Source: a virus (taxonomy: Duplodnaviria; Heunggongvirae; Uroviricota; Caudoviricetes). From it: a stretch of DNA of 29,509 nucleotides. The notes beneath the pieces are model-generated. The model saw only the letters and a program-made list of their open reading frames with translations. It had not been told where the DNA came from and did not search any database. Of this stretch, positions 1 through 29,509 are shown piece after piece. Every line of letters starts with the position of its first letter. The first letter of the stretch is position 1. The DNA lies in the IMG/VR virus record IMGVR_UViG_2718218398_000001, positions 1 through 29,509 of that record. One strand, 5' to 3'. The position numbers and the translations under genes were made by a program.

Positions 1-2203
1 GAGCGTTATTTCTTTAATGAATCCCGTGATCCTGTCCAGCGCGAAATGGAGCAGGATAAGCTCATTAGCCGGGCAAAGCTGGTGCATGAGCAGCAGCGTT
101 TTAATCCGGACATGGTCATACTGGCGGACGTTAACGCCCAGCCTTCCCATATCAGCAAGCCGCTGATGCAAACGTATTGAATACTTCAGCAGCCCTGGGC
201 AGGCCAAAGGCTTATTCCCGCTATTTGCGTGAGACGATTAAACCATGTCTGGAACGACTAGAGCATGTACGCGACAGTATCTGCATCTTTCGTTTTATGG
301 CAAAATGAAGGCTGGACGGCCTGCTGATCTTGCCTGAAATGAGTCAGGATCAGGTGAAGCGCCTGTCTACCCTTGTTGCCGGCACATATGAGCATGTGCC
401 TTGATGCAGCTTGTGGTGATTTGTATGCCACCGATGACGTTAAGCCAGAAGAAATCCGCAAGACATGGGAAAGGGTGGCGGCGGAAACCCTGCGTCTGGA
501 TGTCATCCCTCCTGCGTTTGAGCAACTCCGCCGGAAAAGAAACCGCCGTAAACCCGTACCCTATGAACTCATTCCGGGTTCGCTGGCGCGTATGTTGTGC
601 GCCGACTGGTGGTATCGGAAATTATGGAAGATGCGTTGCGAATGGCGGGAAGAGCAGTTGCGTGCTGTTTGCCTGGTCAGCAAAAAAGCATCTCCCTATG
701 TCAGCTATGAAGCCGTGATGCATAAACGTGAGCAGCGCCGTAAGTCGCTGGAGTTTTTCCGTTCTCATGAACTGGTGAACGAAGACGGCGACACGCTGGA
801 TATGGAGGACGTGGTAAACGCCAGTAGTAGCAACCCGGCGCATCGCCGCAATGAGATGATGGCATGTGTTAAAGGTCTGGAGCTTATCGCGGAAATGCGC
901 GGTGACTGCGCCGTTTTCTACACCATCACCTGTCCGTCACGTTTCCATTCCACGCTAAATAACGGCAGGCCCCAACCCGACCTGGACAAATGCGACGGTA
1001 AGACAAAGCAGTGATTATCTGGTCGGCATGTTTGCTGCATTTCGTAAGGCGATGTACAAAGCCGGATTGCGCTGGTATGGCGTGCGGGTGGCTGAGCCGC
1101 ATCATGACGGTACAGTTCACTGGCACCTGTTGTGTTTTATGCGCAAAAAAGATCGCCGCGCCATTACTGCTTTGTTGCGTAAGTTTGCCATTCGTGAAGA
1201 CCGCGAGGAGCTGGGTAATAACACAGGACCACGCTTTAAGTCTGAGCTGATAAACCCGCGCAAAGGTACACCAACAAGCTACATCGCGAAATACATCAGT
1301 AAGAACATTGACGGGCGTGGTCTGGCTGGCGAGATCAGCAAGGAAACGGGTAAATCTCTGCGTGATAACGCTGAATACGTTAATGCCTGGGCGTCTCTGC
1401 ATCGTGTTCAGCAATTCCGCTTCTTTGGCATTCCGGGGCGTCAGGCTTACCGTGAACTGCGATTGCTGGCTGGTCAGGCGGCAAGGCAACAGGGTGACAA
1501 AAAAGCAGGTGCGCCGGTACTGGATAACCCGCGCCTTGATGCCATTCTGGCTGCAGCTGATGCTGGTTGCTTTGCCACCTACATCATGAAGCAGGGCGGC
1601 GTACTGGTTCCCCGTAAATATCACCTCATCAGAACCGCTTATGAAATCAACGAAGAGCCGACCGCCTATGGCGATCACGGTATTCGTATTTATGGCATCT
1701 GGTCACCCATTGCAGAGGGCAAGATCTGCACTCATGCAGTGAAGTGGAAAATGGTCCGTAAAGCCGTTGACGTTCAGGAGGCGGCAGCCGACCAGGGCGC
1801 TTGCGCCCCTTGGACTCGTGGCAATAACTGTCCCCTTGCTGAAAATTTGTACCAACAAGGGAAAGACAAATCAGCTGATGGGGATACCAGAACGGACATT
1901 ACCCGCATGGATGACAAGGAGTTGCACGATTACCTGCACAGTATGAGCAAAAAAGAGCGCCGGGACCTGGCAGCAAGGTTACGCCTGGTTAAACCGAAAC
2001 GGCGTAAAGACTACAAACAGCGAATTACATACCATCAGCGACTGCAGCTCGTCTATGAGCTGAAGTCCAGAGGATTTGATGGTAGCGAGAAAGAGGTCGA
2101 TTTACTCCTTCGCGGCGGCAGTATTCCGTCAGGAGCAGGCTTGCGTATCTTCTATCGGAACCAGCGTTTGTGGGAAGATGATAAGTGGCGGAACCTGTAT
2201 TAA
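1..2203 (+). pseudogene. A: Replication initiation protein gpA (rolling-circle HUH endonuclease), 5' partial and frame-disrupted
   Basis: ORFs 373..1014 and 1028..2203 are collinear with P2 gpA. HUH motif HWHLL at 1118..1132 (within [11 protein letters not shown]). Paired active-site tyrosines [12 protein letters not shown] starting at 1280. Window bases 1..372 appear to continue the same protein in shifting frames. At least one frame break near 1015..1028, probably more upstream. Confidence 0.85.
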
Positions 2204-2295
2204 TTACGCGGATTAACAATTCGTGCTCTTAATAATACCAGGCATATCAGGCTGATGAACGTAAAAAAACGTTTTACATCAGTAAGATTATTATA

Positions 2296-2315
2296 TACTG
2301 TAAATATAAACAGTG
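2296..2315. promoter_or_regulatory. LexA (SOS) box, CTGT-N8-ACAG
   Basis: 20-mer tactgtaaatataaacagtg matches the E. coli LexA consensus taCTGT(at)4ACAGta, with CTGT at 2298..2301 and ACAG at 2310..2313. Lies in AT-rich DNA upstream of a small ORF and a dinI-like gene. Confidence 0.6.
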
Positions 2316-2356
2316 GTTATGCATACAGTATTGCTTGTGGTGTCATAGGAGGAAAG

Positions 2357-2479
2357 ATGCAGGACTATTTTTTGGAGTCTTTGAAGCTCCAGCGCATTGA
2401 TTTTTTTCTTAAGCTTGTAGCGGCTAGTGAGTGTAGTGATGAAGAAAGGGGCTGGCTCTGCAGTGGGTTTCTGAATTGA
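2357..2479 (+). CDS. Hypothetical small protein (40 aa) between the SOS box and dinI-like gene
   Basis: ATG at 2357 preceded by a strong RBS AGGAGG (2349..2354). The six-frame ORF extends to 2255, but that start lies upstream of the LexA box. No recognisable motif. Confidence 0.35.
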   Translation: MQDYFLESLKLQRIDFFLKLVAASECSDEERGWLCSGFLN

Positions 2480-2554
2480 CTGATGAACTCATGGCAAAGA
2501 TCAGAACCCACGAATACAACCGCTCAATGGATGTCATCAGTTGAGGTGACTTTT

Positions 2555-2788
2555 ATGCGCATTGAAATAATGATCGATAAAGAGCAGAAGATTAGCCAGT
2601 CTACCCTGGACGCCCTTGAATCCGAGCTTTACCGCAATCTGCGCCCCCTGTATCCAAAAACGGTAATTCGTATCCGTAAAGGTAGCTCTAACGGTGTGGA
2701 ACTGACCGGACTGCAACTGGATGAAGAAAGAAAACAAGTGATGAAAATTATGCAGAAGGTGTGGGAAGACGACAGCTGGCTGCATTAA
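2555..2788 (+). CDS. dinI: DinI-family protein (DNA-damage-inducible protein I-like)
   Basis: 77-aa product MRIEIMIDKEQ...IDALESELYRNL...KVWEDDSWLH aligns by eye along its length with E. coli DinI (MRIEVTIAK...IDALAGELSRR...ETWESADDWF). RBS GAGGTGA lies upstream of the ATG at 2555. The six-frame ORF 2483..2788 contains it. Confidence 0.8.
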   Translation: MRIEIMIDKEQKISQSTLDALESELYRNLRPLYPKTVIRIRKGSSNGVELTGLQLDEERKQVMKIMQKVWEDDSWLH

Positions 2789-2792
2789 GAAA

Positions 2793-2839
2793 CGTTGCCC
2801 CCAAGAGGATTTATCCTGTTGGGGGGAGTTTGGGCAACG
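2793..2839. terminator. Long imperfect inverted repeat or stem-loop downstream of the dinI-like gene (possible terminator)
   Basis: cgttgccc (2793..2800) pairs with gggcaacg (2832..2839), with inner ccccaa/ttgggg and aggat/atcct pairings. No clean U-tract. Confidence 0.3.
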
Positions 2840-3276
2840 AGTGAAATGAGGTGTAAGGTGGGCGGTCATTTTGATAAGTGATCGTCCACTTTGTGTCAGA
2901 ACCTGATGTTTGTTGTACATTCGGACGAATAGGCGGCGTTGTTTGCTTTAAAAATAAAACAGGAACACTTTGAGAAAGTGAACAGGTGTATTTATTTGTT
3001 GCTGATGAATGAGAGTAACTCTAATTTGGATAATTAGCTTGATAATAGGTCAGACGAAAATAATATTCCAGCACACTTTTGGTCGCAACAGGCATTAGTT
3101 AATTTTAAGTGATAAATTTTTATCCATAAATTAACACTAGTGTGTCATCTAGCGAAACCGAATCGCTTTAACTCATAACTTGAAGTTGAATCAGTGGGGT
3201 AGCAGTAGGCATGCCGGAACTGATAAACTGTGCAGAAGGCTAAACATTCATTCACTCGTGAGATAGTAGCTAAATT

Positions 3277-4143
3277 ATGCAAAGAATTATTCCTGATAAA
3301 AATTGGTGGGAAAAAGAGCGTATTAATCGTAAAGCATCATCAATATGCCCATATGCTAGTTCATACAGATGTCCTCGATACTATCAGAGTGTAGTTTTGC
3401 TCTCAAGCATCAATGTGATAGCTGGTATGGCAACTAGGAAAGAAAAAGAGTTGGGCGAATTTTGGGAAAGAACCACTTTCTCATCTTTATGTGATGAAGA
3501 AGTCCCTACAGTTACTACAAAAGAATATGGCGGCCTTGCATCAGTTAGTAATTTTTGCCCAGAAATATCATTTAGATATTTACACTACTACGCCGATTAT
3601 ATGTGTAAATATGTTGATGAGATAGATCAGGACACTGGCAGGCGTATTGCGGAAAAAGATAATTTAGAAAATGATTGGAAATATACATGGATGTCAGTCA
3701 ATCCTAAATTTTATTTAGATTGCGATGTTTTTGAAAGTGTCAAAAATTTTAATGAAGAATTGGCTAGTGATTACTTAAAAAGATTGCACCCAAATATCGT
3801 TCAGCAAATAGATAGAATGAATAATTGCTTGGATAATAATGATCCGGCAGGTGCACTGCACGCAGCCTCTAATATTTTAGAAACTATGGCTAAGGAAATC
3901 ACTCAAAACCCGAATGTGGCAAATGAGTCATTGGGTGGTTTTTTTAAACAGTTCGAAAAAATGTCAAAATTACCTAAGAATCTTATTGATGCTGTTAAAG
4001 ATATTTATGATTTACGCAACAAATTACCTACTGCTGGACACGGAAGCTTGAACAAGCCTGAATTGACTATGGTAGAAGCTATAACTATTGCGGCAATGAC
4101 AAAGGCGATTTTAGAAATTGAATATCGAAGCAAAGCCATCTAA
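3277..4143 (+). CDS. Hypothetical protein (288 aa) with Cys-rich N-terminus and HEPN/Abi_C-like C-terminal signature
   Basis: Intact ORF in low-GC DNA. N-terminal cysteines (CPYASSYRCPRYY, FCPE, MCKY, LDCD). C-terminal helical region with LRNKLPTAGHG (R at 4015, H at 4039), resembling the RN...HG signature of Abi_C/DUF4145-type HEPN domains. The R-H spacing is longer than canonical Rx4-6H. Confidence 0.5.
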   Translation: MQRIIPDKNWWEKERINRKASSICPYASSYRCPRYYQSVVLLSSINVIAGMATRKEKELGEFWERTTFSSLCDEEVPTVTTKEYGGLASVSNFCPEISFRYLHYYADYMCKYVDEIDQDTGRRIAEKDNLENDWKYTWMSVNPKFYLDCDVFESVKNFNEELASDYLKRLHPNIVQQIDRMNNCLDNNDPAGALHAASNILETMAKEITQNPNVANESLGGFFKQFEKMSKLPKNLIDAVKDIYDLRNKLPTAGHGSLNKPELTMVEAITIAAMTKAILEIEYRSKAI

Positions 4144-4270
4144 CAAACCAAATTATGTGGTTCAAATTCCCGCTACACTTCTGTGTTGCCGCCAGCGTCT
4201 ACTTATCGCTGTGAGTTCAACGGGTGATGATGCGTTAGAGATCTCTGAATCGATTGAAGTCTAAGGTTGT

Positions 4271-4292
4271 CAGGGCTGTAACAGCAGCCCTG
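4271..4292. terminator. Stem-loop between convergent genes (candidate bidirectional terminator)
   Basis: cagggctg (4271..4278), loop taacag, cagccctg (4285..4292). Sits in the 250-bp gap between the 3' ends of 3277..4143 (+) and 4393..5047 (-). Confidence 0.35.
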
Positions 4293-4392
4293 TGTCATGA
4301 ATGGATTGCATATTAATTGACGAAGAACAGACTAATATCATCGATAGCTGTTTTCAAAAATAGACCAATAACAAACTGAGATGTTATCGTAT

Positions 4393-5047
4393 TCATTTCG
4401 ATGATTGATCCAGATGTGTATATAACCATTGAAAGAGTTTTCTAATTTTTGTGATAGTATCTTTTAAATAATTTAAGGAGATTATTATATTATTTTCATT
4501 GTTTAATGAAAGAGTAGGTGTTTTATCAATGATATTTTTTAAGGCTACAGCTGTGCTCATTTTTTTAATGTCTCCATTAGCATGAACTATGCAATTCCTT
4601 ACTTTGTTAAACTCTGTCATGAATTGCCACTCTTGTGACAGGCCAAAGTTTATATCCATTAATTTTGTTAAATATCTTTTTGCTTTGTGGATGCCATCAC
4701 CATTAAAATCGGTTACTGATATATTGGTGTTTACAATCCTTTGACATATATTGCAATAGTCGTTTAGGTTGTGCTCTAAGCATGAGTATAAAGATACCAA
4801 AGCAGATTTATTAAAAAATATTTGGTTGTATGTTAACTAAGAAATCATATTGCTCTGAATAATAGTCTTCTAAGTAATTAATATAATCGTCAGGAGCATT
4901 CTTTTTTTCATCTTCATATGCTTTTTTTAATTCCGCTAAGTCAACTCTGTTTTGGCCGCCTGCTCCTAGGATATATTTTTCGAAATCATCAATCTGCGCT
5001 TCAAGTGAATATCTTGATAGCTGTGCGAAAAGTTTGTATTTACTCAT
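4393..5047 (-). CDS. HEPN-like protein, candidate abortive-infection RNase; split into two ORFs (4811..5047 and 4393..4800) by a 1-nt frame change at an A6/T6 run
   Basis: Minus-strand ORFs of 78 aa and 135 aa are contiguous; the upstream one ends at a TAATAA double stop directly after a T6 run (plus-strand A6 at 4814..4819). Removing one T fuses them into about 215 aa (...NIQPNIF-NKSALVSLYSC...). Canonical HEPN motif R-N-C-I-V-H (Rx4H) encoded at 4582..4599, followed by a predicted helix. Confidence 0.5.
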
Positions 5048-5446
5048 CGGTATGCCATTCCTTTTTAATTATAAACCTTTGGGTTAAAAGGAGCTGAAAA
5101 TAGTAACTCATTATTTTTGTTTGTAAAGGGGGTATTGTTTTTACTAGATCAAGATAAAACAATGGGAATATCCGCTTTTCGCTCACAGCGGACTTTCATC
5201 TTTGTAAACCCGTATGATTAGCTTTTCAGCGGTCATTCAGATACGGATTTACGCTTCCCTTGGCTGTGCATGACTATGACGCATGAGATCGCATGATCGT
5301 TAGAGGATCGTTTTTGCTGAGGCCAGCCAGAACTGGCGTGCTTTTGCTTATGTCGTGCAGGTGCATGAAAACCACTACATAAAGCGGGCAGGCGTGGCGG
5401 GGATACGAGCGCGCGCTTATTACTTTGATAGTACTCGGGTTATAAT

Positions 5447-7129
5447 ATGGATGACTATCTATCTCGGAGAATGTACATGTCATTAGACTATATTAAAGAA
5501 CAGTTGTCAGACTTTATTTCATCTGCAGAACCTGAGGTAATGGCTATTCAGGGTGAGTGGGGGATTGGGAAAACCTATACTTGGAATGCTTTCTTAAAGG
5601 AAAATAAAAATAAGATTGCATTTAATAGATATAGTTACGTCTCTCTTTTTGGTGTTAATTCATTGGACGCATTAAAATACTCCATCTTTGAAAATACAAT
5701 TACGAAAGATTTCATTGGAAACAAACCTAATTTAAAAACAGCAACACAAAATGCAAAGGGGCTTCTTGAATCCTGCACTAGAAAGACCGCTCGTGTGTTA
5801 AAAGATACACCTTTTTTGAAAAATTTCACTACGACACTTGAGTCAATGTCATTTATGTCAATTACTAATGTTATTGTAGTCATAGATGACTTAGAAAGAC
5901 GTGGTAAAAATTTAGAAGTGAAAGATGTCTTAGGGTTGGTTTCTTTATTGAAAGAACAAAAAAATTGTAAGGTGGTTCTTTTACTTAATAACGGGACAAG
6001 TGGTATGGATGACTACTCCACTTATAAAGAAAAGGTTATTGATAGAGAGATTACCTATAATCCTACTCCAGAAGAATGTGCAGTTATAGCATATAAAAAT
6101 AATTCTGATGTTCATAAATTATTAAGCAAATACTCCATTTCCCTGGGTATTAAGAATATTAGGATACTGAAAAAAATAGAGCGGTTTTTGCTAGCCTTGT
6201 TACCTGGCATTAACGTTAATTTTGAAAAAATTGCAAATGAAGTCGCACACTCCTTAACTTTGTATTGTTGGAGTCATTACGCATTTACTCCAGATGGAGA
6301 TGTACCATCATTGGAGTATATTAGAAATATGAGAAATATCTATATGCGTGATGAAAAAGAGGATGGAAAAGAAAAAAAATGGCTTAATACTTTGCTTATA
6401 TATGATTATAAAAAAACAAACGAACTTGATGAAGTCCTTATAGACATGGTAAGGCATGGATATATTGATATGAACAATTTCCAAAGGCAAGTAAGTCTAA
6501 GGAATGATGAACTTATCCGTGATAGTAAGCGAGGTTCACTGTTTGAAGCATGGAAGCTTTTCTATAATTCATTTGAAGATAACCGAAATCAGGTTATTGA
6601 TAATCTATATCAAGCGGTGGTTGGTGGGATAGAGTATGTAACTCCAAGTGACTTGGATAGTGTTGTCGGACTGTATAGAGATTTAGGTGAAAATATTAAA
6701 GCAAGTGAATTAATAAGTAAATTTATTAATTACGGCAATGATGCTCTTAAGGAATATGTTCAATCTATTTACATGAATGTTCATCCTATAAAAGATGCTG
6801 AGTTAAAGTCAAAAATCCAAGATTATTCTACTACTTTAAATCTGGATGGTTCTATAAAGGATGTTCTAATAAAATTATCAAGTCAGAATGGTTGGTCTGA
6901 TAGGCACGAGGAAATATTGGATGCTGCCTCAGAGGATGACTACTATGATTTATTTAAAAAAGTCATTCTTGATGGTGGTGATTCAATAATAGCTACTGCT
7001 CTTAAGTTTGGTGGGTATAGCAATGGTTCAGAAAGAATGAAACGCATCGGAGAAAAAGCGAGAAATGCTTTGATAAGAATTGGAAATGAGTCGAGCATTA
7101 ATAAAATACGTGTTAGACGGTATTTGTAA
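5447..7129 (+). CDS. KAP-family P-loop NTPase (560 aa)
   Basis: Walker A GEWGIGKT (5552..5575). Walker B plus the KAP-characteristic hhhhDDLER/DR motif NVIVVIDDLERR (about 5870..5902). Long alpha-helical C-terminal region. Low-GC codon usage. The true start is more likely ATG 5477 (RBS GGAGA at 5466..5470) than 5447. Confidence 0.7.
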   Translation: MDDYLSRRMYMSLDYIKEQLSDFISSAEPEVMAIQGEWGIGKTYTWNAFLKENKNKIAFNRYSYVSLFGVNSLDALKYSIFENTITKDFIGNKPNLKTATQNAKGLLESCTRKTARVLKDTPFLKNFTTTLESMSFMSITNVIVVIDDLERRGKNLEVKDVLGLVSLLKEQKNCKVVLLLNNGTSGMDDYSTYKEKVIDREITYNPTPEECAVIAYKNNSDVHKLLSKYSISLGIKNIRILKKIERFLLALLPGINVNFEKIANEVAHSLTLYCWSHYAFTPDGDVPSLEYIRNMRNIYMRDEKEDGKEKKWLNTLLIYDYKKTNELDEVLIDMVRHGYIDMNNFQRQVSLRNDELIRDSKRGSLFEAWKLFYNSFEDNRNQVIDNLYQAVVGGIEYVTPSDLDSVVGLYRDLGENIKASELISKFINYGNDALKEYVQSIYMNVHPIKDAELKSKIQDYSTTLNLDGSIKDVLIKLSSQNGWSDRHEEILDAASEDDYYDLFKKVILDGGDSIIATALKFGGYSNGSERMKRIGEKARNALIRIGNESSINKIRVRRYL

Positions 7130-7134
7130 TTTGG

Positions 7135-7152
7135 GGGGGATTTTCATCCCCC
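7135..7152 (+). terminator. Hairpin terminator candidate after the KAP NTPase gene
   Basis: ggggga / ttttca / tccccc stem-loop 6 nt after the stop at 7127..7129, followed by a T-rich stretch (cacattttat). Confidence 0.4.
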
Positions 7153-7163
7153 ACACATTTTAT

Positions 7164-10950: not shown

Positions 10951-12017
10951 ATGAAGAAGAATACCCGTTTTGCTTTTAACGCTTACCTGCAGCAGCTGGC
11001 GCGTCTGAACGGTGTGGCAGTTGAAGAACTGTCCAGCAAGTTCACTGTGGAGCCGTCTGTGCAGCAGACGCTGGAAGACCAGATCCAGCAGTCCGCCGCT
11101 TTCCTGACGCTGATTAACGTCACGCCCAGTGACTGAGCAGTCCGGTCAGCTGCTGGGGCTGGGTGTTGGCAGCACCATTGCCGGAACCACTGATACCACC
11201 GCGAAAGAGCGTGAACCTGTCCGATCCGACGCTGATGGTCGATGTGGAATACAAATGTGAACAGACCAACTTTTGACACGGTGCTGACCTACGCGAAGCT
11301 GGACCTGTGGGCGAAGTTTCAGGATTTCCAGGTGCGTATCCGTGACGGCCATCGTGAAACGTCAGGCACTGGACCGCATCATGATCGGCTTTAAACGGCG
11401 TGAAGCGTGCGAAAACCTCCAACCGTAGTGAAAACCCCGCTGCTGCAGGATGTGAACAAAGGCTGGCTGCAGAAAATCCGTGAGGATGCACCGGATCACG
11501 TCATGGGCAGCACCACCACGGGTGGTGAAACCACACCGGGCGCGGTGAAAGTCGGCAAAGGTGGAGAATATGCCAACCTGGACGCCGTGGTGATGGATGC
11601 TGTCAATGAGCTTATCGACGTGGTCTACCAGGACGATGACGATCTGGTGGTGATTTGCGGTCGTGAGCTGCTGTCTGACAAATATTTCCCGCTGGTCAAC
11701 AAAGAGCAGGAAAACAGTGAAAAACTGGCTGCCGATATGAATCATCAGTCAGAAACGCATGGGTGGCCTGCAGGCCGTGCGTGCGCCGTTCTTCCCGCCG
11801 AATGCGCTGCTGATCACCCCGTCTGGATAACCTGTCCATTTACTGGCAGGAGGACACCCGCCGCCGTTCGGTTATCGACAACCCGAAACGTGACCGGATT
11901 GAAAACTTTGAATCCGTTAACGAAGCCTATGTGGTTGAGGACTACCGCTGCGCAGCACTGGTGGAAAACATCCAGATTGGCGACTTCAGCGCCGCCGCCG
12001 CAGAAGCCGGAGCATAA
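10951..12017 (+). pseudogene. N: Major capsid protein gpN, multiply frame-disrupted
   Basis: N-terminus MKKNTRFAFNAYL...KFTVEPSVQQTL (10951..11136) and a later segment VKVGKGGEYANLDAVVMDAVNELIDVVYQDDDDLVVICGRELLSDKYFPLVNKEQENSEKLAAD match P2 gpN in different frames. At least four frame changes between 11136 and 11880. Stop at 12015..12017. Confidence 0.85.
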
Positions 12018-12020
12018 ACC

Positions 12021-12662
12021 ATGAGCCTGAGTCCCGCACGGCAGCATCGCCTGCGCGTTCAGGCTGAACAGGCCGCCCGCGAGGGCGGCAGTGTTCGCCA
12101 CGCGTCGGGCTATGACCTGATGCTGCTGCAACTGGCGGAAGACCGCCGCCGTCTCAAGGGCGTTCAGTCCACGGTCAAAAAAGCGGAAATCAAGGTGGAG
12201 CTGCTGCCGAAGTACGCCGCCTGGGCAGAGGGTGTCCTGGCTGCCGGAGGCGCTCAACAGGATGACGTGCTGATGTACGTGATGCTGTGGCGCATTGATG
12301 CCGGAGATTATGCCGGGGCGCTGGAGATCGGGCGTCATGCCCTGCGTCATGGCTGGGTGATGCCGCTGGGTAACCGCAACGTGCAGACCGTGCTGGCAGA
12401 GGAAATGGCAGATGCAGCCCAGAGCGCAATGCTTGCCGCCACCGGCTTTGATGCCGATCTGTTGCTGCAGACGCTGGAGCTGACAGACGGTATGGATATG
12501 CCGGACCAGTCACGGGCGCGTCTGCATAAAGCGATTGGCGCTGTCCTGAGTGAAAACAATCCGGCGTCCGCCCTTAATCATCTCAACCATGCGTTACAGC
12601 TCGATCCCCGCTGTGGCGTGAAAAAAAGACAAACAGCAGCTGGAGCGCAGACTGCGCAATGA
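12021..12662 (+). CDS. M: Terminase small (endonuclease) subunit gpM
   Basis: 213-aa product collinear with P2 gpM (…DDVLMYVMLWRIDAGDYAGALEIGRHALRHGW…). The extreme C-terminus may carry a 1-nt indel in the A-run at 12614..12620. Confidence 0.8.
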   Translation: MSLSPARQHRLRVQAEQAAREGGSVRHASGYDLMLLQLAEDRRRLKGVQSTVKKAEIKVELLPKYAAWAEGVLAAGGAQQDDVLMYVMLWRIDAGDYAGALEIGRHALRHGWVMPLGNRNVQTVLAEEMADAAQSAMLAATGFDADLLLQTLELTDGMDMPDQSRARLHKAIGAVLSENNPASALNHLNHALQLDPRCGVKKRQTAAGAQTAQ

Positions 12663-23846: not shown

Positions 23847-24284
23847 ATGAGCGATAAGCAGACTGAAAAGACCATTCAACTGGATACCCCATCAAGCGCG
23901 GTAAAACAGAAATCACCGAAATTGTGCTGCGTAAACCGCAGTCCGGTGCGCTGCGCGGTACACGCCTGCAGGCCATTATGGATATGGATGTAAACGCGAT
24001 GATGACCGTGATCCCCCGCATCTCCCAGTCCCGGCACTGACTGCACAGGAAATTGCAGAGATGGACCCGGCAGATCTCACTGCCATGTCGGTTGAGGTTG
24101 TCACTTTTTTGTTGAAGAAGTCGGTGCTTGCCGGTTTACCGACAGCCTGACGGTTGACGATCTGGTGGCAGATATCGCCACCATTTTTCACTGGCCGCCA
24201 TCCGTTACTGACGTTATGCCGCTGACCGAAGTGCTGGAATGGCGGTATAAAGCGATTCAGAGAAGCGGGGCCAACGATGAGTGA
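23847..24284 (+). pseudogene. E: Tail assembly chaperone gpE/E' with T6G programmed -1 frameshift site; additionally frame-disrupted near 23890
   Basis: ATG 23847. Conserved slippery heptamer TTTTTTG at 24105..24111 (the P2 E/E' site). The N-terminal frame is broken in a C-run: gataccccatc (C4) needs C5 to read DTPIKRGKTEITEIVLRKPQSG. The E' frame ends at 24282..24284. Confidence 0.7.
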
Positions 24285-27200
24285 TAACAACCTGCGTCTG
24301 CAGGTCATTCTTAATGCGGTTGACAAGCTTACCCGCCCATTTCGATCTGCGCAGGCCAGTTCAAGAGAACTGGCTGCTGCTGTCAAAAAATCCCGCGATG
24401 CAATAAAGCAGCTTGATCAGGCCGGGAGCAGTCTGGACAGCTTCCGAAAGCTGCAGGCAGAAAATCAGAAATTAGGCGACAGGCTGAACTATGCCCGCCA
24501 GCGTGCAAATTTGCTCAGTCAGGAACTGGGAGCGATGGGGCCGCCTTCGCAACGTCAGGTTGTTGCTCTGGGCCGTCAACGGCTGGCTGTTCAGCGCCTG
24601 GAAGAACGCCAGAAAAAGCTGCAGCAGCAGACGGCGCTTGTGCGTGCTGAACTGTACCGGGCGGGAATTTCTGCGAAAGACGATGCGGGAGCAACTGCCC
24701 GTTTAGCCCGTGAAACATCACGTTATAACCAGGAACTTTCGAAACAGGAGGCGCGGCTGAAGCGACTGGGGGAAGCTCAGCGCAGGATGAATGCAGCGCG
24801 TGCCAGTTATGCCCGTTCGCTGGAGGTGCGTGATCGTATTGCAGGTGCCGGAGCCACCACCACGGCTGCAGGGCTGGCAATGGGCGCAACCAGTGATGGC
24901 GGCAGTAAAAAAGCTATACCAGCATGGAAGATGCCATGAAAGGTGTGGCAAAGCAGGTCAATGGTCTGCGTGACGATAATGGCAACCGCACTGCACGTTT
25001 TTATGAAATGCAGGATGCCATCAAGGCTGCCAGCCGAACAGTTGCCGATGGAAAACGGTGCGGTGGATTTCGCTGCACTGGTTGAAGGTGGTGCGCGCAT
25101 GAACGTCGCAAACCCTGACGACAGTTGGGAAGATCAGAAACGTGACCTGCTGGCCTTCGCCAGTACGGCAGCAAAGGCGGCAACAGCCTTTGAGCTGCCA
25201 GCGGATGAACTGTCAGAAAGTCTGGGGAAAATCGCCCAGCTCTACAAAATCCCCACCCGCAATATTGAACAGCTCGGCGATGCGCTGAACTATCTGGATG
25301 ATAACGCCATGTCGAAAGGGGCAGACATCATTGATGTGATGCAACGTCTGGGCGGTGTGGCTGACCGTCTGGATTATCGTAAAGCGGCGGCGCTGGGTTC
25401 CACCTTCCTGACACTGGGCGCTGCGCCAGAGGTTGCAGCCAGTGCAGCAAACGCGATGGTGCGTGAATTGTCCATTGCCACCATGCAAAGCAAGAGTTTC
25501 TTTGAAGGGATGAATCTGCTGAAACTCAATCCTGAAGTGATTGAAAAGCAGATGACGAAGGATGCGATGGGAACCATCCAGCGCGTGCTGGAGAAGGTAA
25601 ACGCGCTGCCGCAGGACAAGCGCCTGTCTGCCCATGACTATGTTGTTTGGTAAAGAGTTTGGCGATGAATGCGGCGAAACTGGCAAACAACCTGCCGGAA
25701 CTGCAGCGTCAGTTAAAACTGACAGCGGGCAATGATGCGCTCGGCTCCATGCAGAAAGAATCCGACATTAACAAGGATTCACTTTCTGCGCAGTGGTTGC
25801 TGGTCAAAACCGGAGCGCAGAACACCTTCAGCAGTCTGGGCGAAACGCTGCGCCAGCCGCTGATGGATATTCTGTACACGGTGAAAAGCGTCACGGGGGC
25901 GTTGCCGTCGCTGGGTGGAAGCTAACCCGGAACTGACAGGCACACTGATGAAAGCAATCGGCTGTTGTGGCTGCGGTTACCGTCGGCCTAGGCACCTTAG
26001 CGGTGGCGATGGCTGCAGTGCTGGGGCCGCTGGCAGTGATCCGTCCTGGGATTCTCTGTGCTGGGTATCAAAACGTTACCTTCCGTTATGGCAGCAGTAA
26101 CTCGAACCAGCAACGCGTTGTCCCTGGTTGGCTGGCGCTCCACTGGCACTGCTGCGACGCGGGCTTGCTTCATCGGGCAACGCCGCAGGTTTACTTACTG
26201 CGCCGTTGTCGTCTTTGCGCCCGCACGGCATCACTGACGGGAAATGTCCTGAAAACTGTAAGCAGGTGCGCCAGTTGCACTTTTGCGGTCTGGATTATCC
26301 GGTTTTACGTGCTGTTGCTGTGATGTTTATGAATCCTCTGGCGGTACTGCGCGGTGGACTGGCCGCCGCAGGCACGGTGCTGCGAGTACTGGCATCTGGT
26401 CCACTGGCGATGCTGCGCGTTGCCCTGTATGCCATATCTGGGTCTGTTAGGTGCTCTGCTCAGTCCGATAGGTCCTTGTGGTTACTGCACTGGCGGGCGT
26501 GGCGCTGGTTTGTCTGGAAATACTGGCAACCCATCACCGCATTTCTCGGTGGCGTGGTGGAAGGATTCAAAGCGGCGGCAGGTCCATCAGTGCAGCGTTC
26601 GAACCGCTTAAGCCCGTGTTCCAGTGGATTGGCGACAAAGTGCAGGCGCTGTGGGGGCTGGTTTACTGATCTGCTGACGCCCGTTAAGTCGACCTCTGCC
26701 GAACTGCAGAGCGCAGCGGCAATGGGGCGGCGATTCGGGGAGGCACTGGCGGAAGGGCTGAATATGGTCATGCATCCGCTGGACTCCCTGAAATCCGGCG
26801 TTTCCTGGTTGCTGGAGAAGCTCGGCATTGTCAGTAAAGAGGCCGCAAAGGCAAAACTGCCGGAAAGCGTGACGCGTCAGCAACCTGCGACGGTGAATGC
26901 AGACGGTAAAGTGATGATGCCATCGGGTGGTTTTCCATCATGGGGATATGGCTTTGCGGGGATGTATGACAGCGGCGGGTATATCCCGCGCGGGCAGTTT
27001 GGCATCGTCGGTGAAAACGGACCGGAAATTGTTAACGGCCCGGCAAATGTGACCAGCCGGAGAAATACAGCTGCACTGGCTGCCGTTGTTGCCGGAATGA
27101 TGGGCGTTGCTGCCGCGCCAGCAGAGCTTCCACCGTTGCACCCTTGGCACTTCCCGCGAAAGGTGGAGAAGCAATTGTGAGTCGCGCAGCCACTGTGCCG

Positions 27201-27850: not shown

Positions 27851-28566
27851 ATTTCAGCTCTGAACTGCTTAACAAAGGCAACAAAACTCCCGCATTCAGC
27901 ATCAGTATTGAGGGCAGGGATATCACCACTGTGCTGGATAACCGCCTGATGAGTTTGACGCTGACGGATAACCGGGGCTTTGAAGCGGACCAGCTTGATC
28001 TGGAGCTGGATGACGCTGACGGAAAAATCGTGCTGCCGCGCCGTGGTGCGGTTATTACGCTGGCGCTGGGCTGGAAGGGGCAGCCGCTTTTCCCGAAAGG
28101 GGCATTCACAGTGGACGAGATTGAACACACTGGCGCACCGGACCGCCTGACTATCCGGGCGCGAAGTGCTGATTTTAGGGAAACGCTGAATACCCGCCGT
28201 GAAAAATCGTGGCACAAGACCACTGTCGGGAAGTGGTGAAGGAAATAGCCGCGCGTCATAAGCTGAAGATGGCACTGGGTAAAGACCTGTCGGATAAGCC
28301 CGTGAGCATATAGACCAGACTAATGAGAGTGACGGCAGTTTTCTGATGCGGCTGGCGCGCCAGTACGGTGCCATCGCGTCGGTGAAAAATGGCAATCTGT
28401 TATTCATCCGGCAGGGACAGGGCAAAAGCGCCAGCGGTAAACCACTGCCGGTGATCTCAATCACACGTAAGGACGGCGACAGTCACCGCTTTACCCTGGC
28501 AGATCGCGGAGCCTACACGGGCGTAATTGCCAGCTGGTTGCATACCCGCGAACCCGCGAAGAAAGA
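27847..28566 (+). pseudogene. D: Tail protein gpD (late control gene D), frame-disrupted and 3'-truncated
   Basis: GTG 27847. The N-terminal 130 aa and the segment 28346..28560 (RLARQYGAIASVKNGNLLFIRQG...) match gpD in different frames. Homology stops at about 28560, roughly 240 of the expected ~387 codons. Confidence 0.7.
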
Positions 28567-29305
28567 AAGCACACGGATTATCCCAGCTATCTGGTTGCGG
28601 ATATTAATCCTGATTTAATCAACCTCTATAAAAAGGTTGCCGCTGATTGTGAATCGTTTATATCTCGCGCCAGAGTTTTATTTTAAGGAAGCAAACAGGG
28701 AGGTGGCTTATTACAACATAAGGCAGGAGTTTAATTACTCAACTGAAATTACTGATTTCATGAAAGCGGTATATTTCCTGTATCTCAATCGTCACGGTTA
28801 CCGTGGGTTATGTCGCTATAACAAGAGCGGGCATTTCAACATTCCCTACGGTAATTATAAAAATCCGTATTTCCCTGAAAAAGAAATTTGCGCATTTGCA
28901 GAGAAAGCCCAACGAGCAACGTTTATCTGCGCCAGCTTTGATGAAACGCTGGCGATGTTGAAGGCGGGGGATGTGGTGTATTGCGATCCGCCGTATGACG
29001 GTACGTTTTCCAGCTATCACACTGATGGTTTCACTGAAGATGACCAGTATCACCTGGCATCCGTTCTTGAACATCGGTCATCAGAAGGACATCCGGTCAT
29101 TGTTTCTAACAGTGACACATCCCTGATCCGTTCGCTGTATCGCAATTTTACTCACCACTACATCAAGGCAAAACGCAGCATCGGCGTAGCAGCTGGTGAG
29201 AGTTCTGCAACAGAAATCATCGCTGTTTTCTGGGGCGCGCTGCTGGGTGGATTTGATCCTTCGCGTGGCGTGGATAGTTCTGCCGTGTACGGAGTACGTG
29301 CATGA
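28567..29305 (+). pseudogene. dam: DNA adenine methyltransferase (Dam family) fragment, 5'-truncated and frame-disrupted
   Basis: TDYPSYLVADINPDLINLYKK (from about 28567) aligns to E. coli Dam NTDFSRYILADINSDLISLY, i.e. about 45 N-terminal residues including the SAM-binding FxGxG motif are missing. Downstream has [18 protein letters not shown] and catalytic DPPY (VYCDPPYDG). Frame changes near 28670 and near the 3' end. Confidence 0.75.
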
Positions 29306-29499: not shown

Positions 29500-29509
29500 T
29501 CAGGTCTGG

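Follow-up and report, generated by a model that had tools for sequence, protein, structure and literature searches.

The region from position 2296 to 2788 of the window, by which we mean the whole analyzed stretch of 29,509 nucleotides, is very probably the SOS induction operon of a 186/Fels-2-type P2-like prophage, present in the split-tum form and with its tumA-like gene frameshifted. The operon lies directly after the replication gene, with gene A ending at 2203 and the first LexA box beginning at 2296. The LexA box, ribosome-binding site (RBS), small ORF, and DinI-family gene were all found at the coordinates given by an earlier, first-pass annotation of this DNA, including the strong RBS ahead of a 40-codon frame and the intact 77-aa DinI-family gene (Table 1). 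The split-tum (tumA/tumB) arrangement is already known from PSP3 and Fels-2, and nothing in this window is new, because the unusual length of the small ORF is the result of a frameshift.

Table 1. Features of the SOS operon and of the adjacent cargo island (positions in the window)
Feature	Position	Strand	Evidence or remark
3' part of replication gene A (P2/186 gpA family)	1..2203	+	several frames in window
Putative -35, TTTACA, of SOS promoter (186 p95 counterpart)	2273..2278	+	17 nt upstream of TACTGT
Putative -10, TACTGT, inside LexA box 1	2296..2301	+	analogy with 186 p95
LexA box 1, TACTGTAAATATAAACAGTG	2296..2315	+	matrix score, shuffles, conservation
LexA box 2, CAGTGGTTATGCATACAGTA	2311..2330	+	matrix score, conservation; 5-nt overlap with box 1
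Shine-Dalgarno AGGAGG of tumA-like gene	2347..2352	+	read from sequence; invariant in close relatives
40-codon ORF as read in window	2357..2479	+	residues 1-30 native TumA-like; 31-40 out of frame
tumA-like gene, full extent (62 aa in relatives)	2357..2544	+	alignment; homology to 186 Tum residues 5-52
Shine-Dalgarno GAGGTGA of DinI-like gene	2543..2549	+	overlaps tumA stop codon in intact relatives
DinI-family gene (tumB-like), 77 aa, intact	2555..2788	+	PF06183, Tum C-half, 1GHH, phrog_189
GC-rich hairpin after dinI	2798..2825	+	fold z = -1.42, not significant
Abi_C-like ORF	3277..4143		weak, E 0.0017
HEPN-like ORF	4393..4800	-	PADLOC RTasHEPN, E 4e-6
78-aa ORF	4811..5047	-	
KAP P-loop NTPase	5447..7129		PADLOC PDC-S49, E 2e-25

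The operator was scored with a LexA position weight matrix, as the first-pass annotation had proposed; the matrix was derived from a training set of 25 E. coli boxes, and its scores are approximate. Box 1 reached 23.3 bits, above the median of the training sites (20.1 bits) and above the highest score seen in any of 500 shuffled versions of the window (18.3 bits). It differs from the 20-mer LexA consensus at three positions, a level attained by 0 of 100 shuffles, and its sequence, TACTGTAAATATAAACAGTG, is the sole CTGT-N8-ACAG in the 29.5-kb window. The site had been described as near consensus, and these figures bear that out. A further matrix site at 1209 inside gene A (15.0 bits) was dismissed as chance, its score being equal to the 95th percentile of the shuffle maxima.

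A second box, CAGTGGTTATGCATACAGTA, was absent from the first-pass annotation. It scored 13.8 bits, the third-best matrix site in the window, and was kept in six Fels-2-type sequences (12.1 to 19.5 bits, with the value of the window among them), its ATACAGT half-site conserved and its flanking bases variable. In an alignment of the upstream regions, box 2 was not found in 186, PSP3, or the ESSI-2 group. The Fels-2-type group is thus predicted to have a double LexA operator, which is a modestly useful point. Overlapping LexA boxes of this kind presumably resemble those of colicin operators, for example colE1 cea, whose double boxes likewise share 5 nt and have a second box beginning CAGTGG...TACAGTA, as at 2296 to 2330. 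The genes downstream of colicin operators are unlike those of the window.

When the upstream regions of ten phages were aligned, a strong LexA box was present in all ten (20 to 29 bits). Box 1 is identical in Fels-2 and the Klebsiella phages, and a strong box also occurs in SopEPhi, Yersinia MLG42, the ESSI-2 group, 186, PSP3, and metagenomic relatives. In two metagenomic lineages, whose proteins are 42 to 52% identical, the box scores 23 to 27 bits and ends 15 nt before the ATG. Across the ten phages and these two lineages, the box is retained at the orthologous position while the flanks diverge. For 186, the promoter p95 is annotated as TTCACA, an 18-nt spacer, and TACTGT, the -10 being the TACTGT of the LexA site. 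Across the aligned phages, a TTTACA-like -35 likewise precedes the TACTGT of the box by 17 to 18 nt, matching the p95 geometry, and by this analogy the TACTGT at 2296 to 2301 is the putative -10 in the window.

A generic sigma-70 promoter scan called no promoter here, because the -10 matches at only three of six positions. That result is what favors reading the palindrome as a chance match or as the site of another factor, with the operon outside SOS control. We consider such a reading highly improbable, since the score exceeds those of all 500 shuffles, the box has been kept in place in diverged phages and metagenomic relatives, and the homologous site and promoter of 186 are annotated as LexA regulated and have been used experimentally as a UV-inducible module (PMC7708051). 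We infer that LexA binds, and that the promoter is used, at 2296 to 2330.

The small gene behind this operator encodes in relatives, from the same ATG, a 62-aa protein, MQDYFLESLKLQRIDFFLKLVAASECSDEEKGLALQWVSELTDELMAKIRTHEYNRSMDVIS, which is 98.4% identical to Fels-2 STM2728. By megablast, the region was found at 97 to 98% identity in 56 Peduoviridae phage records (Klebsiella, Escherichia, and Salmonella), and about 20% of the complete E. coli genomes searched carry it (1100 of 5426). An AlphaFold model of the 62-aa protein gave a helical hairpin (helices at residues 2 to 23 and 28 to 61, pLDDT 88). No solved structure matching the 62-aa protein was found, Pfam and NCBIfam hold no family for the small protein in either its 62-aa or its 96-aa form, and an Rfam search of the window found nothing.

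The first-pass annotation had suggested a comparison of the small ORF with the N- and C-terminal regions of Tum. Pairwise BLASTP gave no match between the 62-aa protein and either 186 Tum or PSP3 TumA, nor between PSP3 TumA and 186 Tum, whereas the profile comparison did place the family on the N-terminal half of Tum. An exhaustive HMMER search yielded 56 family representatives, 23 full-length members of which were aligned for a profile. Against 186 Tum, this profile gave an hhalign probability of 94% (E 1.3e-7) over Tum residues 5 to 52, and one family member (P0147) matched Tum residues 5 to 43 with 41% identity over 39 aa (E 7e-11). The match of the profile to PSP3 TumA was weak (hhalign probability 15%). 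In addition, the 62-aa protein matched phrog_698, phrog_8554, and phrog_1993, the N-terminal half of Tum matched phrog_1993, phrog_8554, and phrog_698, and PSP3 TumA matched phrog_1993. Thus, on the strength of profiles and intermediate sequences, the 62-aa family is judged to be a homologue of the N-terminal half of Tum, the antirepressor of 186. Since the DinI-like protein matches the C-terminal half, the two genes of the window are taken to correspond to the two halves of Tum.

In public records, the small gene is modeled as 62 aa or 96 aa (for example, at 2056 to 2346 of L002 and 3056 to 3346 of L001) and is labeled "hypothetical" or "levan regulatory domain protein"; phrog_698, phrog_8554, and phrog_1993 are listed as of unknown function. 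Some phage records and one UniRef name would make the small ORF a 96-aa "levan regulatory protein" starting at the ATG at 2255. This model was rejected and is hardly credible, because neither the 62-aa nor the 96-aa form matches a Pfam or NCBIfam family, the 34-aa extension is not conserved and overlies the promoter and both LexA boxes, and family members at 35 to 73% identity start at MQD/MxD after the RBS. One of the records concerned, RefSeq record L001 (Escherichia phage 500465-1), carries IS100kyp-family (IS21-like) genes inserted in gene A (924 to 2156), together with compensating indels of its own in tumA and indels in dinI (3056 to 3688). It therefore also appears to be a damaged or error-rich copy.

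The first-pass annotation had described a small ORF of 40 aa and had proposed either a novel small antirepressor or a remnant. That length is not natural: relative to every close relative, all of which encode 62 aa, the window has a 1-nt deletion between 2445 and 2446 (GAAGAGAAGG to GAAGA-AAGG). The ORF is a frameshifted copy of the widespread 62-aa gene, so "novel" does not apply and "remnant" comes closer, although the cause may be sequencing error. Residues 31 to 40 (RGWLCSGFLN) are read out of frame, and the remaining 32 native C-terminal codons are still encoded, out of frame, at 2446 to 2544; in relatives, the 62-aa gene stops 10 nt before the dinI ATG. The frameshift after codon 30 removes helix 2 with the invariant W37 and the ELA..W..EL motif. 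The reading frame for the whole domain is thus not intact in the window copy, and its product is most probably inactive.

In favor of a genuine and functional mini-antirepressor, the 40-aa ORF has a strong RBS, a start codon, and a putative LexA-controlled promoter, and it retains, in its first 30 residues, helix 1, which is conserved in the family. However, one missing base is all that separates it from the 62-aa gene, which is carried by about 1100 genomes of E. coli and by at least 120 contigs in IMG/VR. A 39-mer of the window allele had no exact match in IMG/VR, whereas a 40-mer of the intact allele had at least 120. Moreover, the most conserved motif of the family is gone along with helix 2, the rest of the native codons persist out of frame, and frameshifts occur across the whole window. 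A functional mini-antirepressor is accordingly very unlikely, and loss of function of the window copy is the inferred outcome.

The truncated tumA frame is also the frame of the ORF at 2483 to 2788, which contains dinI, with only the TGA at 2477 to 2479 between them. Because the conserved helix 2 is lost, this shared frame is probably a coincidence and not a 186-like fusion. Other frameshifted versions exist in public assemblies, since ten proteins (P0129, P0132, P0136, P0140, P0141, P0143, P0145, P0148, P0153, and P0157) are near identical to the family over only their first 29 to 47 residues, beyond which they either end or become dissimilar.

Indels are frequent throughout the window, so the tumA frameshift is one instance of a general defect. 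Compared with its closest E. coli prophage (E189), the window showed 72 indel events over 22.3 kb; 71 were not multiples of three, 46 were changes in homopolymer length, and single-base insertions predominated. Against the same reference, three high-quality relatives had two to six events each, with zero or one homopolymer-length change. The genes broken in the window include gene A, the terminase, the capsid, and the tape-measure genes (e.g., 170 to 970, 11125 to 12621, and 24026 to 26653). Gene A, annotated in relatives as a single 2415-nt gene, is here spread over ORFs at 46 to 180, 177 to 308, 373 to 1014, and 1028 to 2203, not all in the same frame; it is split into four frames and contains eight indel sites relative to E189. 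Indels of this kind are commonly seen in assemblies with many errors. Because 1-nt indels occur throughout, the tumA deletion is likely a sequencing or assembly error, and otherwise a product of general prophage decay.

The window is also circularly permuted: its end at 29509 continues seamlessly into position 1, and 28573 to 29509 matches the region just ahead of position 1, which holds dam and the beginning of gene A. Late gene D and the dam methylase gene meet near 28573 (region 28545 to 28605), at a 4-bp microhomology, ACGG. As a result of this junction, about 5 kb is absent, comprising the 3' end of D, ogr, att, int, cI, apl, cII, fil, and small early genes, and the absence reflects either a deletion or a misassembly. 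There is no CI gene in the window, the whole int-cI-cII region being lacking, so the expected target of the TumA-like protein is missing from this sequence. The E189 prophage has a 186-type immunity region (int, CI, apl-like, CII, and Fil), and its CI (WP_024220196) shares 33% identity with the CI of 186 across 175 aa (E 9e-39).

If the tumA deletion were real, the window could be a decaying, non-inducible prophage remnant with tumA as a true pseudogene. We regard this as possible but rather doubtful. The reading is favored by the position of the tumA deletion at 2445/2446, outside any homopolymer run, by the frames lost in gene A, terminase, capsid, and tape measure, and by the loss of ogr, att, int, cI, apl, and cII at the microhomology junction. 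However, the dominance of homopolymer-length changes (46 of 72) and of single-base insertions, and the ratio of indels to substitutions (about 1:12 overall, 1:3.5 in the A region), look more like read error than natural decay. The closure of the window as a circle would also be odd for a chromosomal remnant.

The second gene of the operon is intact. Its product scored 81.3 bits against PF06183 (cut-off, 24.2), covering profile positions 1 to 63 of 63, matched the E. coli DinI structure 1GHH (E 2.7e-6), was 41% identical to 186 Tum residues 71 to 145, and was assigned to phrog_189. Against NCBIfam NF007893, the equivalog of the chromosomal E. coli DinI, it scored 42.7 bits, below the cut-off of 111. 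These scores indicate a phage paralogue, not host dinI.

In ESSI-2-type phages and two metagenomic lineages, a tumA-like gene stands behind a LexA box without dinI (L012, 701 to 913; L013, about 701 to 868; L135, 535 to 744; and L137, 3001 to 3192). There, an ogr/delta gene on the opposite strand and the portal gene directly follow the lone tumA-like gene. Judged from these loci, the DinI half is dispensable for the module, and the conserved core therefore appears to be the LexA box and the tumA-like gene, with the DinI half optional.

Two hairpins near the DinI-like gene were considered. The GC-rich hairpin after dinI may be a weak terminator (compare 186 t95a); a terminator scan called none at 2798 to 2825, and the hairpin is not a canonical terminator. 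The hairpin at 2533 to 2550 over the dinI RBS was rejected as a coupling or attenuation element, its fold being no better than those of shuffled sequences (z = -0.65).

Between dinI and the portal gene lies a low-GC island (2900 to 7160; 31 to 41% GC versus 51 to 61% in the phage core), which occupies the P2-type variable cargo/defense site. At this site, relatives carry SIR2 plus an ATPase, or a TIR protein. A more far-reaching version of the remnant reading would have the deletion real and the prophage domesticated and no longer SOS inducible, with the double LexA operator expressing only the DinI-like modulator and maybe the defense cargo. We think this improbable. If true, read-through past the weak hairpin would reach the Abi_C-like, HEPN-like, and KAP NTPase cargo at 3277 to 7129, and antiphage defense would be coupled to DNA damage.

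For the intact operon of relatives, homology and the work on 186 suggest the following mechanism. In the lysogen, LexA bound to the two overlapping boxes (2296 to 2330) would cover the -10 of the promoter after gene A and keep the operon off. Upon DNA damage, LexA would be cleaved and the promoter would express the two genes. The TumA-type 62-aa helical-hairpin protein would then bind a 186-type CI and block its binding to the operator, leading to lytic growth, while the TumB-type DinI-like protein would modulate RecA and the SOS response. CI binding by the 62-aa family, and hence the path from LexA release to CI inactivation, is expected by analogy with Tum of 186, which binds CI and prevents operator binding (Shearwin et al. 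1998, as cited in PMC3121763). The version in the window would yield 30 native and 10 foreign residues, with the conserved second helix lost.

The main value of the analysis is a correction of annotation for the small gene after gene A. This gene, which about a fifth of complete E. coli genomes carry and which is also common among P2-like prophages of Klebsiella and Salmonella, is to be read as a stand-alone Tum N-terminal half. A very common gene is unannotated or mislabeled in public databases, and this is again a modestly useful point. Because a gene for the Tum N-terminal half stands under a double LexA operator, these prophages are predicted to be induced by DNA damage, including that caused by SOS-inducing antibiotics.

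Among the closest known systems is the Fels-2 pair STM2728/STM2726.1. As reported previously, Tum looks like an antirepressor fused to DinI, tum is split by a stop codon in Fels-2 and PSP3, and the upstream gene of PSP3 carries the antirepressor activity (Lemire et al. 2011, PMC3121763). That paper credits the split-tum statement to Bunny et al. 2002, the primary source for Fels-2, and to a personal communication. A literature search for tumA/tumB returned no relevant match. The Fels-2 pair is treated in the literature as the two halves of tum (PMC3121763), and STM2726.1, the gene after STM2728, is annotated as similar to PSP3 TumB. Fels-2 has the same LexA box 1 and the same spacing as the window, with the DinI-like gene 10 nt past the stop codon. 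It differs in that the window copy has the 1-nt deletion that truncates the first gene, and in its downstream cargo.

PSP3 has the same layout, in which gene A is followed by a LexA box, then by a gene encoding about 60 aa, and then by a 77-aa DinI-like gene. Its record describes tumA (60 aa) as "similar to 5' end 186 tum; UV induction of prophage" and tumB as "similar to dinI and 3' end of 186 tum", and tumA sits behind a perfect LexA box. However, that box is single, and PSP3 TumA belongs to another subfamily (phrog_1993, versus phrog_698 here), although the 62-aa protein does match phrog_1993 at E 0.0022. In the Gifsy dinI-gfoA/gftA operons, LexA likewise represses a DinI homologue and a small antirepressor (PMC3121763), but dinI comes first, and the antirepressors and their target repressors are from unrelated families.

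The 186 record has annotations for promoter p95, for a LexA site that overlaps the -10 of this promoter, and for tum (146 aa). The promoter comes just after gene A, and its overlap with the LexA site is the arrangement proposed for the window. The 62-aa family is related to the N-terminal half of Tum and the DinI-like protein to the C-terminal half. The first-pass annotation had likened the locus to 186, and its reading of a LexA-controlled operon of the 186 type, directly after the replication gene and with a DinI-family gene, is supported. The separate DinI-like ORF that it attributed to 186 does not exist as such, the DinI-like part being the C-terminal half of Tum itself. In general, 186 differs from the window in that the two halves are fused in one polypeptide behind a single LexA box, and orf97 comes next in the operon.
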